From Octopus vulgaris (taxonomy: Eukaryota): a stretch of 64,000 bases of DNA. A program made the translations under genes and the position numbers. Shown one piece after another: positions 7,681 to 56,447 of this stretch. The notes beneath the pieces are model-generated. The model was not told where the DNA came from. It saw nothing but the letters and a program-made list of their open reading frames with translations, and did no database searches. The DNA is taken from positions 137,206,001-137,270,000 of the forward strand of contig OX597815.1 of NCBI GenBank assembly GCA_951406725.2, read 5' to 3'. The first letter of the stretch is position 1. Each line of letters begins with the position of its first letter.

Positions 7681-8641
7681 ATATATTCAATATGTTTATA
7701 ATCCAGAAACATGATATTCACAGATAACCGCCAGACTTCGTATTCGTTTTCTATTCCTTCTGTTTTGCATATGTGAATTACAGGGTCTGTCATGCCCGGA
7801 GTCCAACTTTGATAGAAATAAGCATTCTTGACTGCTATTTCTATTTTTCGGTATGCGGTCAAGCAACCTGTTTTGCCTGTCCCTTTTTCTTATATACAAT
7901 ATATATACTGAACTTTACAGAAGTTCCTGCCGGTAATCGGCTATATTTACATACCGAATTCTACCAGTAAATAATTGGGGTTTTTTTAAAGCCTTTATAG
8001 AAATTATTTACTCTTATCATTATATTACTATTTGGATTTTTCACTCCCTTTGACAACCTATTTTTGTAATGCGCATGGCAGAATTTTGGAGGGAAGATTT
8101 ATGAATTCAAACGTCTATGTAGATTTAGCCTTTGCTCACTTTCTTCAAATATTTTGATGTCGCATGGTCAGAAGGTTTGAGGTACGTAGCATTTGATAAA
8201 TCTATGATAAATCTTTTTCAATGGAAAGCTGTGCTGAAGAAGGATGTGAAATATATATGAAATATATATGAAATATATATCAAAAATATATGGAATATAT
8301 ATTCAATATGTTTATAATCCAGAAACATGATGTTCACAGATAACCGCCAGACTTCGTATTCGTTTTCTATTCCTTCTGTTTTGCATATGTGAATTACAGG
8401 GTCTGTCATGCCCGGAGTCCAACTTTGATAGAAATAAGCATTCTTGACTGCTATTTCTATTTTTTCGGTATGCAGTCAAGCAACCTGTTTTGCCTGTCCC
8501 TTTTTCTTATATACAATATATATACTGAACTTTACAGAAGTTCCTGCCGGTAATCGGCTATATTTACATACCGAATTCTACCAGTAAATAATTGGGGTTT
8601 TTTTAAAAGCCTTTATAGAAATTATTTACTCTTACCATTAT
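7681..8641 (+). mobile_element. Non-autonomous HHR-bearing element (family D), ~1.5 tandem copies of a ~616-bp monomer inside (TA)n
   Basis: 7686-8020 is repeated almost identically at 8302-8640; both ends abut (TA)n; a hammerhead is present; second locus at 12685-13335. Confidence 0.8.
8229..8339 (+). ncRNA. Type I hammerhead ribozyme with long AT-rich loop II
   Basis: CUGUG-CUGAAGA-A-GGAU[~70 nt]AUCC-A-GAAA-CAUGAUG-UU-CACAG. Confidence 0.7.
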
Positions 8642-9805
8642 ATATATATATATATATATATATATATATATATATATATATATATAATAGAAATCCCTAT
8701 TAATCTCTCTAATATAATGAGAATATGTCTAGACTTCCTGAGAACAAGTTCTACTGGAAGGAACAAAACTCCAGCATACCCTAGAACTCCAATTGCTGAT
8801 GACAAGATTGAACCACTTATTTCTGCAGGAAAGTTTAGAGTTAATAAAGAATGTCTTTTCTAGGACTATTGCAACAAGATGCATACTCCTGTTTTTGTTT
8901 CCTAAATGTTTGCTAACCAAGAAATACGTTAACAACGGCTTAGGGCCAAGTGCGACACCTGTGATTAATAAATGCTTCAGAAAGTTCCCTGAACTGATGT
9001 TTTGAGTTTTAAGATCGCAGTGCTGCTCCAAGACACTGCTCTGACTGAGCTGGTGAGAGATTTTACCTGAATGTATTTCAACAAGTGTGAAGCATGACTG
9101 GGTTGGAACCAGTGTCTGAGGTACATTTTCAACTAAGGATGCTAAAGATGTAAACTGTCAGTTACTGCCTTCCAACGCCTAAAACTATTAAACAAAAAAT
9201 GGTTGCTTGTTTCATGGAGAAAACAATAAACAAGTTCGTTTTAAACAAGACGATACCTGTATATGTACGGTAAAAGAAATAACAAATACTGTTTAAAGAA
9301 AACTAACTCCAAAATTATGTTCTCATGAGGTCAGTGTTTAGATTTGAATCCATAGAGAATTTGAGTTTGTGTTGCGCATACACTTGTTGGAAACCAACTA
9401 CAAACTCTAAACAACTTTGATTAGTTGTGAAACATGAATGAAACAATAGGACATTTCTTGGTGCAATAGCTATCTCGTTGTTTCTCCAAAGCTTGGGTCA
9501 CTTAAAGAAATCTAAGGAACGATCTACTCCATATTTATTTGTAAACATATTTATATATGCTTTTACGGTTTCATGGATTTTAAATACATAAAATTACTAT
9601 TACAAAAATAATTAAAAATTGTTCTGAATAGGCTTTTAATTCCCCCAGGAATATATATAAAAGAAAGAAACAATCAAATTTGTACATAAAGTCATTTTAA
9701 TAATAAATTGGAGATTAGAGAGAGAGAGAGAGAGAGAGAATGAGAGAGAGAGACAGATACATATAAATGTTCGTGTGTCTGTATATATATATATATATAT
9801 ATATA

Positions 9806-9970
9806 TATTGTTATATTTCGGAATGGTCATATTGCCAGTTTAGCCAATAACAACACACGCACTATATATTTGGTGTTATTTTGCTTCAGTGTTATTTATT
9901 TTTTACATTAATCTTAATCTTATTTTTATTGGCTAAACTGGCAATATGACCATTCCGAAATATAACAATA
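9806..9970. mobile_element. MITE-like fold-back element with ~45-bp perfect terminal inverted repeats
   Basis: tattgttatatttcggaatggtcatattgccagtttagccaataa (9806-9850) and its exact reverse complement (9926-9970), TA-flanked. Confidence 0.75.
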
Positions 9971-11625
9971 TCTGTTTCAACACACGACTTCACATAAAAA
10001 ATCTTACACAACAAATATTTAAACGTACTATATATATATATATATATATATATATATATATACATAAATGTGCATACACACACACACAATTGAATTCCTT
10101 ACATAGTAATTACATACACATGCACACACATTATAAAAAAGCATATTCTCTTAATATTTTAGATACCTACTGTCCTACTTTGCAAGCTAGACTATCTTAA
10201 TTTATGTTATGTTGTGTACTAAACATAAACTTAAGTGTAATGTCGGAAGGAAAGAAGGGTCGCTAAGCTAAGGGAGGTTAAGAGAAGTTTAATGTTTATG
10301 ATTATGAGTTAAGCTACTTGTGAATCTAATAGGAAGAATATATGGATACAAGAATAGTAACAATTGGGAAATTAAACAATTAGCAATGTCGAAACGAAAA
10401 GCTAAAAATGAAAAGTGGCAAAACTGAAAAATGATGTAAGAAACAAAAACATGAAAAACATAAAAAGATGATGAGAAGCTGAGGCACTGTCTTTTTCTTT
10501 CTTTTATTCCTGTAAAAATATGTTGCTAAATAAAGTGTCTCTTCAAAAAGTGTTAACAAAACAAACGAAGACAAACATTATCCTTCAGGTGTATAAAATG
10601 AAGAACTAATACATTTTCGCTGAAATAAAATACGAATGTATTTTGAGTGAAATAATATGGTAATGGCATTGTTAGTCATTGACATAACATGTAGACAGTA
10701 TCAAGACAAAAGTGTGCTTCGTAATCGTATGCATGAAAAACTTCAAAGACAGTTAAACTATAATGAAGATAGATTACAGTATAAAGTACCAGAAAAATTC
10801 AGATTTTTGCGATATGTCAATCAACCTAAAATTATCGTTACTATCTGTTTCACATATTTACTGAATTTTCGAAGTTCGTTCTTTATCCATTCAATTTCAG
10901 TGCGACCAATATTTGTCTTTAGCGTAGAAAACGGATGTAATTTTAACTTCATAGTCTTTACTTCAGAAGCACAATATTTCCGCATTTGTTTGAATATGCA
11001 TGTGTCTAACTCTTGTTTCCTCTCTCTCTCTCTCTCTCTCTCTCTCTCTCTCTCTCTCTCTCTCTCTCTCTCTCTCTCACCCTCTCTCACTCTCTCTCTC
11101 TCTCTATCTCTCTCTCTCTCATTTATGTGCGCAGACAGGCACGCATACACACACACACACACACACACTTTACACAAACAAACACACACAGACTCACACA
11201 CATTTTTGTTACACAATTTTATACCTGCATTTCCTTGTCTACGTTTGTTATCTTTCCACTTTTTCTATTCAGGTATTCATGTGTTAGTATATATGTGCAC
11301 CTTTGACAATGCGTGCTTTTCAACGTATATGTAACTATGAATACATGTGTCTCGGAAGTATCATCTATCTAGCTACCTAGCTACCTAGCTAGCTAGATAG
11401 ATAGATAGATAGATAGATAGATAGATAGATAGATAGATAGATAGATAGATAGATAGATAGATAGATAGATAGATAGATAGATAGATACACACACAGAGAG
11501 ATAGGTAGACAGGCAGACAGACAGACAGATAGAGAGAGCGAAAGAGAGATACATACATATATGCATAAAAAGACATTGACACACACTTGCGTTTGTATGT
11601 GCGTGTATATATATATATATATATA

Positions 11626-54480: not shown

Positions 54481-54823
54481 TAGTGTGTTATATATGGCAG
54501 TGGGTATATATATATATATATATATATATATATATATATATATATATATAAACATGTGGGATTCTCTCGTCGTGAACAACATACGAAGGTTCAGTAAAAT
54601 AAGGCAGTAATCATATTCTATGGACACGAGAATTTGGCAAGTGGAACGAGATGAGGACTCACTTTGCTCGAGTGCTTGTGGATAATTGACTATGTGTTTC
54701 CTTGAGTAGACGGCAATGCCTGCTTTGCTTCGTGCTACAAAACCACAATGACAGGTAAGGTTTCCATTTAGAGGGGCGGCGTTTTACACACACACACACA
54801 CACAAATATGTGTGTGTGTGTAA

Positions 54824-55690
54824 AATCTAATCAACAACATGAACAATAATATTAACTTTACCATGGAATACAGTAAAACTCAACTACCATTCCTGGATAT
54901 ACTAATCATCACAAGAGATAAGATCATTGAAACAGATATTCGCTACAAACAGATTCTAAACAATACTTACTATTCTCCTCATGCCATCCCAAACACACGA
55001 AGAATAATATCCCCTTTAATCTAGCTTGAAGAATCTGCACAATTGTCTCGAAGCCTGAAAGTTATAATAAAAGACCCCAGGAACTAAAACAAGTACTGCT
55101 TAAAAGACAATATCCATTAATGCTAATAGACAACGGGATAGTACGTGCCAATGCAATCAATATCGAAGAACTACGAAAAACGAAAAACGTTCCAGATACA
55201 TCCAATAATCTACTCTTTATTACAACACACAACCCAAGAAACACAGAGGTTTACAGTATTATCCACCAGAACAGATCACTATTAAAATACAACCCAAGAA
55301 TGAAACAAGCATTCGAAATACAGAAAATAATCAAAAGTAAAAGACAAAGTCCCCCAAAAATTCTTAACAAGTGCTAAATTACCTTCCACAATTCCTACAC
55401 CAACAGTAAAAAAATTTGACCATCTCAATTGCGGAACCTGCATCAACCTTAATGAGGACACAACATACAAATTCAAATCAGGACATACTTTTACCGTCAA
55501 AAATCACATGTTCTTCATGGAATGTAATATATGCTGTCAAATGTCAAGGATGTAATGAAGATTACACAGGTCAAACAAAGCTTACTCTAAGAAATTGACT
55601 GACCATTCACCGACAACAAATATGAGACCCCAGCACTAGATAGATTCCACTGAGTAGTCGCATAGACATATGCGCAAATATTTGCAAATA
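54824..55690 (+). pseudogene. Decayed Penelope-like RT thumb plus GIY-YIG fragment
   Basis: INFTMEYSKTQLPFLDILI, SCHPKHTKNNIPFNLA*RICTIV, NVIYAVKCQGCNEDYTGQT, HRQQI*DP; homologous to 46169-48262. Confidence 0.9.
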
Positions 55691-56400
55691 TTTGTATGTA
55701 GACGTGTGAACCTGCTTTGGACGGTATGTGCAATTATTTGGGCTTATATTTCCCTGTGTATTGTGTTAACGAAGGAAGAAGGCTTATTTTTTGCTTTAAT
55801 TCATAAATTGGAGCCAATTCACAATTAACGTGAGGTCTTTTTAACTTTTTTTCACTATGTATATATCTATCTGGAGTTTTTGGTAATTTTTTGAAGTTAT
55901 CGCACTTGAAGCATGATGGGTCGTTTTCGTCCTTGCTCCCTTAATATAATTATATACATATGTACATTAATATTAATTTAATGTATAAATTGCTTATACA
56001 TTTTTATAGCATGCTGACTACTTGATAAAAATCATTAACGTGATTTTTATCCTTATATTCTATTATGAATAAATATATATATATATATACACACATACAT
56101 GGTTATATATATTTGCGTATATATTCACACGCACATGTACACACAGACACGCACACACACATACACACACTCACACACACACACACACACACACACACAC
56201 ACACACACACACACACACACACACACACACATATATATATATATATATATATATATATATATATATATATTCTCCTTTTAAACCAGATGTGTGAAAATAC
56301 ACTGATGAGCTATGAATGAAATTATCAGACCGTATTTCTGTGTCCTTGCGTCTCAGCAGGTACGGATACTGAATCCATTTTTCCCTGGCCACTACAGTGA

Positions 56401-56447
56401 CCGTAGCTGATGAAGCGTAACGATGTCGAAACACAAGAGTCGTACGG
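56401..56447 (+). ncRNA. Type I hammerhead
   Basis: CCGUAG-CUGAUGA-A-GCGU-AACG-AUGU-C-GAAA-C-ACAAGA-G-UC-GUACGG; a weaker CUGAUGA..GAAA motif lies upstream at 56296-56337. Confidence 0.65.

Follow-up and report, generated by a model that had tools for sequence, protein, structure and literature searches.

We analyzed a 64,000-nucleotide stretch of Octopus vulgaris DNA (contig OX597815.1, positions 137,206,001 to 137,270,000; hereafter the window, in which positions are counted from the first base and a sign gives the strand) that carries 20 type-I hammerhead ribozyme motifs from about 13 families, the degenerate copies being assigned by family. An earlier note on this DNA had counted about 20 such motifs from at least ten families, and that count holds. 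We think it likely that the motifs mark two layers of debris from Penelope-like elements (PLEs): most are 5'-truncated 3' ends of coding elements, and a minority belong to non-long terminal repeat (non-LTR) retrozymes, 489-616 nt long and without an open reading frame (ORF), that were likely copied in trans by the reverse transcriptase-endonuclease of a PLE. Ten of the 20 motifs are the 3' ends of coding PLEs of the Hydra or Neptune type (families C, G, K, D, H and E and one large element), two more resemble family C, and seven make up the ORF-less layer (families A, B, F, I and L). The statement in the earlier note that nearly all motifs sit in ORF-less units is correct for these seven and wrong for the ten in ORF-linked families.

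Coding Penelope-like families and their 3' ends

We searched for PLE ORFs beside the 30 best loci of each of ten families, with 1.5 kb flanks and two protein profiles, one based on 60 relatives of the protein of the local PLE and the other on 60 relatives of the family C protein together with the family G protein. We observed the end of a PLE ORF upstream and in sense orientation at 9 of 30 loci for family C and 12 of 30 for family G, with two more G loci linked across an internal TA run. Likewise, family K showed an ORF link at 12 of 30 loci, across an internal TA run and at a constant distance of about 1.05 kb. A PLE ORF was found upstream of 3 of 30 family D loci, a contiguous ORF end at 3 of 30 family H loci (a fourth match was an unrelated neighbor), and a Neptune-type ORF joined at 1 of 30 family E loci. 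The alternative raised in the earlier note, that some motifs are solo pseudo-long terminal repeats (pLTRs) of autonomous PLEs, is thus borne out for ten motifs in seven families and finds no support in A, B, F and I, for which the same search found no upstream PLE ORF (0 of 30 loci each). These four families, as sampled, also speak against every family being the truncated 3' end of an autonomous PLE, an outcome that the note had named as fatal to its idea.

In the window, family K is represented by a 3' stub of a Hydra-type PLE at 22192-22310 on the plus strand (hammerhead 22235+), family D by an old Hydra-type 3' stub at 23090-23460 on the minus strand (hammerhead 23395-), and family E by a probable 3' stub of a Neptune-type PLE at 24590-24775 on the plus strand (core CUGUAGA at 24645) and a second stub at 43830-44030 on the minus strand. 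The family C copy at 25713-25962 (minus strand; hammerhead 25871-, core CCGAAGA) is the 3' stub, with an inverted arm, of an active Hydra PLE. Family G has left a 3' stub of an active Hydra-like PLE at 32760-33030 (minus strand; hammerhead 32899-). Family H has left two, a Hydra-type 3' end at 38590-38760 (plus strand; hammerhead 38674+) and a stub at 39136-39500 (minus strand) whose hammerhead, 39346-, has a mutated helix III. The C-related stub at 30476-30752 holds two opposed hammerheads, 30634- and 30667+, which are 68-72% identical to the C hammerhead region. The profile search also revealed decayed ORF fragments of the Hydra type (53877-54419, minus strand) and of the Neptune type (54815-55682, plus strand).

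Family C has a 717-aa frame in a 2,590-bp tandem unit, and dozens of open 717-aa frames were found. It carries the motifs of the Hydra clade of endonuclease-positive (EN+) PLEs (RWK, DKT, a CxCx5C linker, CxxC and CxH) in a single ORF and in less than 3 kb, and it shares with that clade the 3' hammerhead and (TA)n insertion; its protein is like that of Hydra-1_Obim by eye only. Family G has an 899-aa frame in a 3,624-bp unit, with RWL, DKT, CNLC and CPH present and a match to the Hydra profile at an E value of about 1e-55. It differs from the clade in its 3.6-kb unit, which exceeds 3 kb, and in the absence of the CxCx5C linker, in place of which a long low-complexity insert rich in Ser, Asn and Gly stands between the reverse transcriptase (RT) and the endonuclease. 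Given that linker and length fail but the four motifs and the profile match, we file family G as Hydra-like. A distant Hydra query for further PLEs returned only frames of the family C type. Along the family C unit, the summed contig depth in one large run drops about 100-fold between the 3' end and the ORF start, which fits 5' truncation and gives no copy number.

Two of these coding families also have two fixed 3' ends, at 66 and 221 nt past the cut in G and at 37 and 108 nt in K. Optional tails are described for PLEs in passages of PMC3846280 and PMC8557442, and the paired 3' ends match them, though the tails here are longer: about 155 nt in G and about 70 nt in K, compared to the 30-40 bp described for EN+ PLEs.

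The large element at 45497-50662 is a Neptune-type PLE in two 5'-truncated arms set back to back, with hammerheads 45669- and 50459+. It contains a 2,417-nt inverted repeat at 99% identity, RT and GIY-YIG domains, open frames of 697 aa on the minus strand and 572 aa on the plus strand, and a tail of ~30 bp on the right. The full Neptune unit is 4,270 bp with an upstream ORF1 region, and many copies have a 775-aa RT frame. The window arms span 2,796 and 2,449 nt of this unit, and what the window copy lacks is the ORF1 region together with 80 or more codons at the start of the RT frame. The element had been described in the earlier note as an intact Penelope helper at 45492-50662; both arms are 5'-truncated and the coding region is incomplete, so it is not intact. 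It does share its anatomy and (TA)n target with the smaller units, as had been claimed. The C-terminal GIY-YIG, DKG, GxKF and a CX2-5CxxC linker place it in the Neptune clade of EN+ PLEs, by motifs only and with no tree, a placement that would also admit Nematis. Over the C-terminal 243 aa of this family, 150 of 150 scored places are identical, and by this measure the Neptune family is active. In full units the ORF1 region overlaps or abuts the 775-aa RT frame, whose first Met stands at codon 140, which suggests a frameshift junction between ORF1 and RT. We also observed the core CCGAAGA (U4C) in young copies of two active coding families, C and the Neptune element (25871-, 45669- and 50459+), and the family E core is mostly CUGUAGA.

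ORF-less families and their shared 3' module

Family A has two insertions in the window. The one at 7686-8638 (plus strand) contains 1.55 copies of a 616-bp unit, with a hammerhead core at 8234 and an AT-rich loop II of ~80 nt, and the one at 12686-13336 (plus strand) joins an inverted arm (12686-12853, hammerhead 12832-) to a 5'-truncated sense copy (12929+). Family B, at 13996-14696 (minus strand), consists of a 548-bp unit, a 33-bp partial repeat and an inverted arm at 14572-14696 (hammerhead 14225-). Family F, at 24840-25545 (plus strand), has 1.3 copies of a 489-bp unit and an inverted arm at 24840-24909 (hammerhead 25221+), and family I, at 42900-43497 (minus strand), has 0.72 of a 565-bp unit and an inverted arm at 43298-43497 (hammerhead 43143-). 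Family L, at 36960-37265 (plus strand; hammerhead 37077+), is an old ~340-bp unit with no PLE profile match in its window copy; its copies are 73-79% alike, and it forms ~340-bp tandem dimers in three other loci read.

The A, B, F and I units have longest ATG frames of 38-80 aa and a GC content of 0.32-0.36. Circular folds gave z of -5.8 to -6.2 for A, B and I and only -1.4 for F. The top copies of each family are 93-99% alike (97-99% in A and I) and have the same unit length. The units stand head to tail with one type-I hammerhead each; arrays of at least two full units are frequent in A and infrequent in the other three families. Insertions span more than one unit at 30 of 30 loci in A, 29 in B, 18 in F and 25 in I. 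Their 3' ends abut (TA)3 or longer at 24, 28, 29 and 29 of the 30 loci, respectively, with nine A loci exceeding the fetched edge, and an inverted arm stands at the 5' end at 17, 17, 19 and 17. There are two fixed 3' ends per family, about 90-120 nt apart (~161 and 268 nt past the cut in B, ~152 and 257 in F, ~194 and 286 in I). These four families therefore display the insertion pattern of EN+ PLEs, namely a fixed 3' end, 5' truncation, an inverted arm, a partial tandem and an optional tail; target-site duplications are unreadable at the insertions, which lie in (TA)n.

These counts depend in part on how the loci were obtained. Families A, B and F were fetched with whole-unit queries, which favors closed units among the top 40 scored places, and family I with its 3' 393 nt only. 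With that shorter query family I still gave 25 of 30 loci of more than one unit, running round the 565-nt repeat, and none had an upstream PLE ORF. The first look returned 1,529, 1,827, 410 and 1,630 candidates for A, B, F and I, which are not copy numbers, and the top 30 loci were read, some of them overlapping, mainly in A.

The A, B, F and I units align with one another over the last ~170 nt, which comprise a CTATTTCTA motif, then a short end and then the tail. The sequence GCTATTTCTA, with at most one mismatch, lies 20-260 nt past the cut in 105 of 110 cases in A, 59 of 60 in I, 38 of 39 in F and 17 of 35 in B, and over the same interval in none of the coding families searched (0 of 57 in C, 0 of 52 in G, 0 of 47 in K, 0 of 22 in H and 0 of 9 in D). 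Because they have this homologous module in common, A, B, F and I are not the independent parasites that the earlier note had envisaged. Among diverged subfamilies of I, identity is 91-92% over the tail, compared to 75-78% over the whole unit, and the ~170-nt module is likely a signal read by the helper. Families G, K, C, H, D and E and the Neptune element were considered as its source and rejected: none gave a profile match, and the best pairwise result reached 5/200 shuffles, in 2 of 42 comparisons. The only match to 14 families of autonomous PLE 3' ends, an incomplete sample, came from an unrelated ORF with an F copy inserted downstream of it. Since the local Neptune PLE is 5'-truncated and its 3' end has no similarity to the module, its role as helper is unsupported.

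Family A units differ at 3.7 positions within arrays and at 9.2 between arrays. The longest array has 13 hammerheads, a repeated three-unit block and 4 of its 13 cores changed to CTAAAGA; of other arrays, one alternates ABAB and one has two recurring short units. Family A arrays with such higher-order periods, repeated units with a changed core among them, lie at C1:120154500-120164400, on C14 and on C18. These periods fit the copying of multimeric circles and, equally, unequal exchange in DNA.

Further features of these families were noted in passing. In B, F and some relatives, ATTATGTAAGTA in loop II (14225-, 25221+) reads as a 5' splice donor (GTAAGT-like) that is absent from A and I; if it were used, splicing and cleavage would be mutually exclusive. 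Contigs of four runs that we guess to be RNA cover the I unit, and one of 550 nt spans the head-to-tail junction; we do not use it as evidence, since tandem DNA copies yield the same junction. In contigs of the I unit from such runs, plus-strand T>C and A>G differences number 14 and 2 in X10, 7 and 0 in X4, 4 and 3 in X1, and 4 and 1 in X8, a T>C excess that may reflect either variation among paralogues or A-to-I editing of sense transcripts. The summed contig depth of the I tail is far above that of the hammerhead part in all four runs, depth being a poor measure. Many more families, or very short stubs, may share the module.

Hammerhead motifs in the window and across the genome

Motifs were scored with a type-I descriptor consisting of the core CUGAnGA...GAAA-helix III-UH and helices I-III. 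In the window this structural scan found seven perfect-core motifs; 40 local dinucleotide shuffles gave 0.05-0.18 (never more than 1), and the reversed window gave none. A loop II limit of 75 nt misses family A; with the limit of 110 nt that we used instead, there are 13 stringent motifs in the window, 10 of them perfect-core, compared to 1.1 in 30 shuffles (maximum 4). Thus, the motif frequency lies far above that of shuffled sequence, the comparison by which the earlier note had asked to be judged, and the hammerheads of the window are real as sequence motifs. All 12 coordinates named in that note carry a hammerhead-shaped motif.

The motifs at 8234+, 22235+, 25221+, 32899-, 38674+, 43143- and 56407+ have a perfect core and score above threshold. 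The motif at 23395- has a perfect core and falls below threshold, with 11 of 30 family loci passing; 14225- has two core changes in the window copy, with 27 of 30 family loci passing. The cores CUGUAGA at 24645+ and CCGAAGA at 25871- are usual for their families, and 30667+ is a core variant with G at the cleavage site. The further motifs are 12832-, 12929+, 30634-, 37077+, 39346-, the E copy at 43.9 kb, 45669- and 50459+. Two decayed copies, near 36.4 and 52.7 kb, stand besides the 20. A (TA)5 or longer tract lies within 450 nt downstream of 17 of the 20 motifs, which are not all independent insertions, compared to 46% of random positions, in agreement with the (TA)n setting first proposed.

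In 26 of 30 families with two or more members, helix III is a palindrome or near-palindrome of 8-10 nt. At positions 1-3 of helix I, a base pair is present in 29, 30 and 29 of the 30 families, respectively, and at least four pair types occur; this is partly by construction, as the families were picked with the descriptor. Single-sequence folds recovered helices I and II in part and lacked the active three-way junction, which is expected for a core built of non-canonical pairs, and we did not use them as evidence. In an Rfam scan of the window, no hammerhead family appeared in the best 150 of 288 matches, which were microsatellite artefacts (miRNA models). We rejected a general pseudoknot that would pair loop II with the 5' flank: the mean helix score over 20 families was 7.0, compared to 6.7 for swapped partners.

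One hammerhead-shaped motif, at 56391-56455 on the plus strand (core 56407), was found by the scan to lie 1,573 nt from the next (TA)5, and the genome search returned no second copy (1 of 1 candidate). Given that it is single-copy and far from (TA)n, we dropped it from the mobile set. The single-copy stretch at 56302-56460 has two CTGATGA cores 105 nt apart, with a matching helix I only at the second.

We sampled the rest of the genome as eighty 10-kb stretches on a fixed grid that leans to larger chromosomes (0.8 Mb of the 2.80-Gb assembly, 227 contigs). The sample contained 35 perfect-core motifs, compared to 3.1 in ten shuffles, and 66 motifs of a looser set, compared to 12-14. We estimate ~40 perfect-core motifs per Mb, or 1.1x10^5 per genome (bootstrap 0.7-1.6x10^5). 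Of the 66 motifs sampled, 6 fall in short direct repeats, and the majority therefore look like lone stubs or pairs in inverted orientation. Copies of the window families occur on many different chromosomes. With 10 perfect-core motifs, the window exceeds the sampled mean of ~2.8 per 64 kb about 3.5-fold (bootstrap P 0.0006), and its 103 (TA)6+ tracts are about twice the genome mean of 54 per 64 kb. The unusual local density claimed at first is thus real in that the window lies above average, while the high load itself is a genome-wide trait. Counts elsewhere, made with different descriptors, exceed 6,000 in Acropora, come to about 5,000 in Mytilus and reach as many as 120,000 in the axolotl genome of 28 Gb, compared to ~10^5 in 2.8 Gb here. 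The random sample also contained more tandem hammerhead units, of 363, 545 and about 366 bp.

Other elements are present in the window. Two, at 13350-13736 and 31833-32344, end in GGGCGATACTGCTAG against (TA)n and resemble non-autonomous Helitrons. Decayed fragments at 15051-15965, 28348-29314, 3719-4126 and 40018-40900 are presumably L1/Tx1-type long interspersed nuclear elements and mariner/Tc1 transposases.

Proposed mobilization, alternatives and relation to known systems

From the anatomy of the insertions and the model of Cervera and de la Pena (2014), a route for the ORF-less units can be proposed. A head-to-tail insertion would be transcribed by read-through, and its hammerheads would cut the transcript to unit length, probably as dimers, with helix III palindromic; the unit RNA would then probably be circularized. 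The GIY-YIG nuclease of a PLE would nick a (TA)n tract, and priming from the nick would take place at a short TA-rich patch, located at either of two fixed positions 150-320 nt beyond the cleavage site; TA-rich patches do follow the fixed 3' ends in the unit sequences. Reverse transcription would run back through the cleavage junction to give more than one unit, and a strand switch would make the inverted arm. As helper, a Hydra-type element is slightly favored over the local Neptune copy, to judge by the 8-10-nt helix III palindromes and the long tails.

Several considerations weigh against this account. Cleavage, circles and trans-mobilization are things that we infer for A, B, F and I, and only one of nine predicted Xenopus retrozyme dimers was cleaved in vitro, according to part of the report by Li, Clavereau and Pollet (2026; bioRxiv 10.64898/2026.07.22.740005). 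With whole-unit queries for A, B and F and only the top 30 loci read, a rare coding parent could escape, and the loci overlap in part, A arrays above all. A coding element bearing the module was absent among 93 PLE 3' segments of 14 families and the seven tested directly, and unequal exchange in DNA could account for the length of the long arrays.

How the ORF-less families arose and on what template they were copied can be read in other ways. It is possible, though the odds seem to us to lie against it, that linear multimeric transcripts serve as template with no circular RNA, the hammerheads being passengers and the arrays lengthening by unequal crossing-over. The same kinds of tandem and inverted insertion are made by Naiad and by most Chlamys PLEs, which have no canonical hammerheads (in passages of Craig et al. 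2021, PMC8557442), and the changed cores in four units and block-like repeats of the 13-hammerhead array would suit such a route. However, the cores and helices persist from family to family, with compensatory changes (partly by construction), and most fresh insertions exceed one unit; this alternative concerns the template only and overlaps with copying in trans by PLEs. A more ambitious version of the retrozyme account would make A, B, F, I and their kin a superfamily of viroid-like circular RNA retroelements with their own conserved ~170-nt 3' docking module, not the trimmed pLTRs of any resident PLE, inserted into (TA)n by RT rolling round monomeric or multimeric circles, among ~10^5 hammerheads, a denser load than in any of the published counts compared. 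Rolling round multimeric circles would explain the ABAB and three-unit array periods, and we hold this version tentatively, as having somewhat less in its favor than a linear template.

Less probable again is that all families, including A, B, F and I, are pLTRs or internal-deletion products of an unsampled coding PLE, with the tandem units as dead-end by-products. Seven window families do join coding PLEs, 24 of 57 Xenopus retrozyme families derive from annotated elements, nearly all PLE termini (in the part of Li et al. 2026 that treats them), and our sample covers only about 2 Mb of 2,800 Mb. Yet there are several hundred to ~1,800 candidates per family, with closely similar top copies of constant unit length, family A variants are array-specific, and the fair test with the 3'-only family I query found no ORF. 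An ancient pLTR origin is compatible with trans-mobilized retrozymes, so that this alternative differs only in holding that the units are not propagating on their own. We give very little credence to the arrangement put forward in the earlier note, in which ten or more independent ribozyme parasites gather at a special locus around an intact local helper. The excess of perfect-core motifs over the genome mean speaks for such a locus, but the (TA)6+ tracts are also enriched here, by roughly twofold, the families occur on many chromosomes, the PLE at this locus is truncated, and the families are mostly PLE stubs, with four of those left over related to one another.

Much of what we observed has precedents. 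Metazoan non-LTR retrozymes, in passages of Cervera and de la Pena (2020; PMC7229834) and Li et al. (2026), are likewise ORF-less, low-GC tandem units with one type-I hammerhead each that range from monomers to multimers beside autonomous PLEs, and their mobilization by PLEs has been proposed. The octopus units, at 489-616 bp, compare to 150-450 bp and 51-972 bp in these two sources, respectively. The (TA)n targeting, inverted 5'-truncated arms, tails and shared 3' module seen here are unreported in those passages, and cephalopods are absent from the portions covering the text of the former and the species sample of the latter. Circles are shown for published retrozymes, whereas the octopus families are known here from sequence alone. 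Homology to a resident PLE pLTR, used as a criterion in the section concerned of Li et al. (2026), was not found for A, B, F and I in our incomplete sample.

The PLE stubs likewise resemble the minimal hammerheads of PLE pLTRs as presented in parts of Cervera and de la Pena (2014; PMC4209133): many variable families, mostly single motifs from truncated PLEs, close inverted pairs, a palindromic helix III and an extra base before helix II. The counts given there, about 2,000-9,000 per genome, were obtained with a different descriptor from our ~10^5; in the octopus motifs helix III mostly measures 8-10 nt, and many have a long loop II. MRC1 and other non-autonomous Chlamys elements (passages of PMC8557442) are likewise ORF-less PLE derivatives, with pLTRs and head-to-tail insertions, and the short non-autonomous Penelope elements of heliconiine butterflies are ORF-less PLE derivatives too (part of bioRxiv 10.1101/596502). 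The Chlamys elements generally resemble autonomous partners at the 3' end and are, in those passages, mostly without canonical hammerheads, whereas no such partner was found here.

The earlier note had been unaware of a description of such a density and diversity of these elements for cephalopods. A hammerhead-bearing Hydra PLE, Hydra-1_Obim of Octopus bimaculoides, is listed with a (TA)n preference and a palindrome-like helix III in part of the supplement to Craig et al. (2021; PMC8557442), and the note overstates to that extent. A literature search outside which lie many journals and repeat databases yielded no description of retrozymes in cephalopods, of such an abundance or of an inter-family 3' module. 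Repbase, Dfam, the O. vulgaris repeat library and bioRxiv supplements may already hold these families. Truncated PLE hammerheads genome-wide, (TA)n Hydra elements including one from octopus, retrozymes of a mussel and other animals and their proposed PLE origin are already published; what this analysis adds is a PLE footprint seen directly on families without an ORF, the 3' module that these have in common, and the scale.

The mobilization of animal retrozymes by PLEs has so far been argued from co-occurrence and pLTR kinship. Because the octopus genome combines young ORF-less families that bear a PLE footprint, a delimited candidate cis-signal and near-identical open coding families, questions of trans-mobilization and of circular templates become directly testable. 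Bonar et al. (2026; PMC13282606) count 893 'unclassified SINE' (short interspersed nuclear element) families among recently active octopus elements, and the main text, in the parts available to us, never mentions ribozymes. Our findings suggest that some of the short repeats left unclassified in annotations of octopus genomes may be stubs of PLEs or retrozymes.

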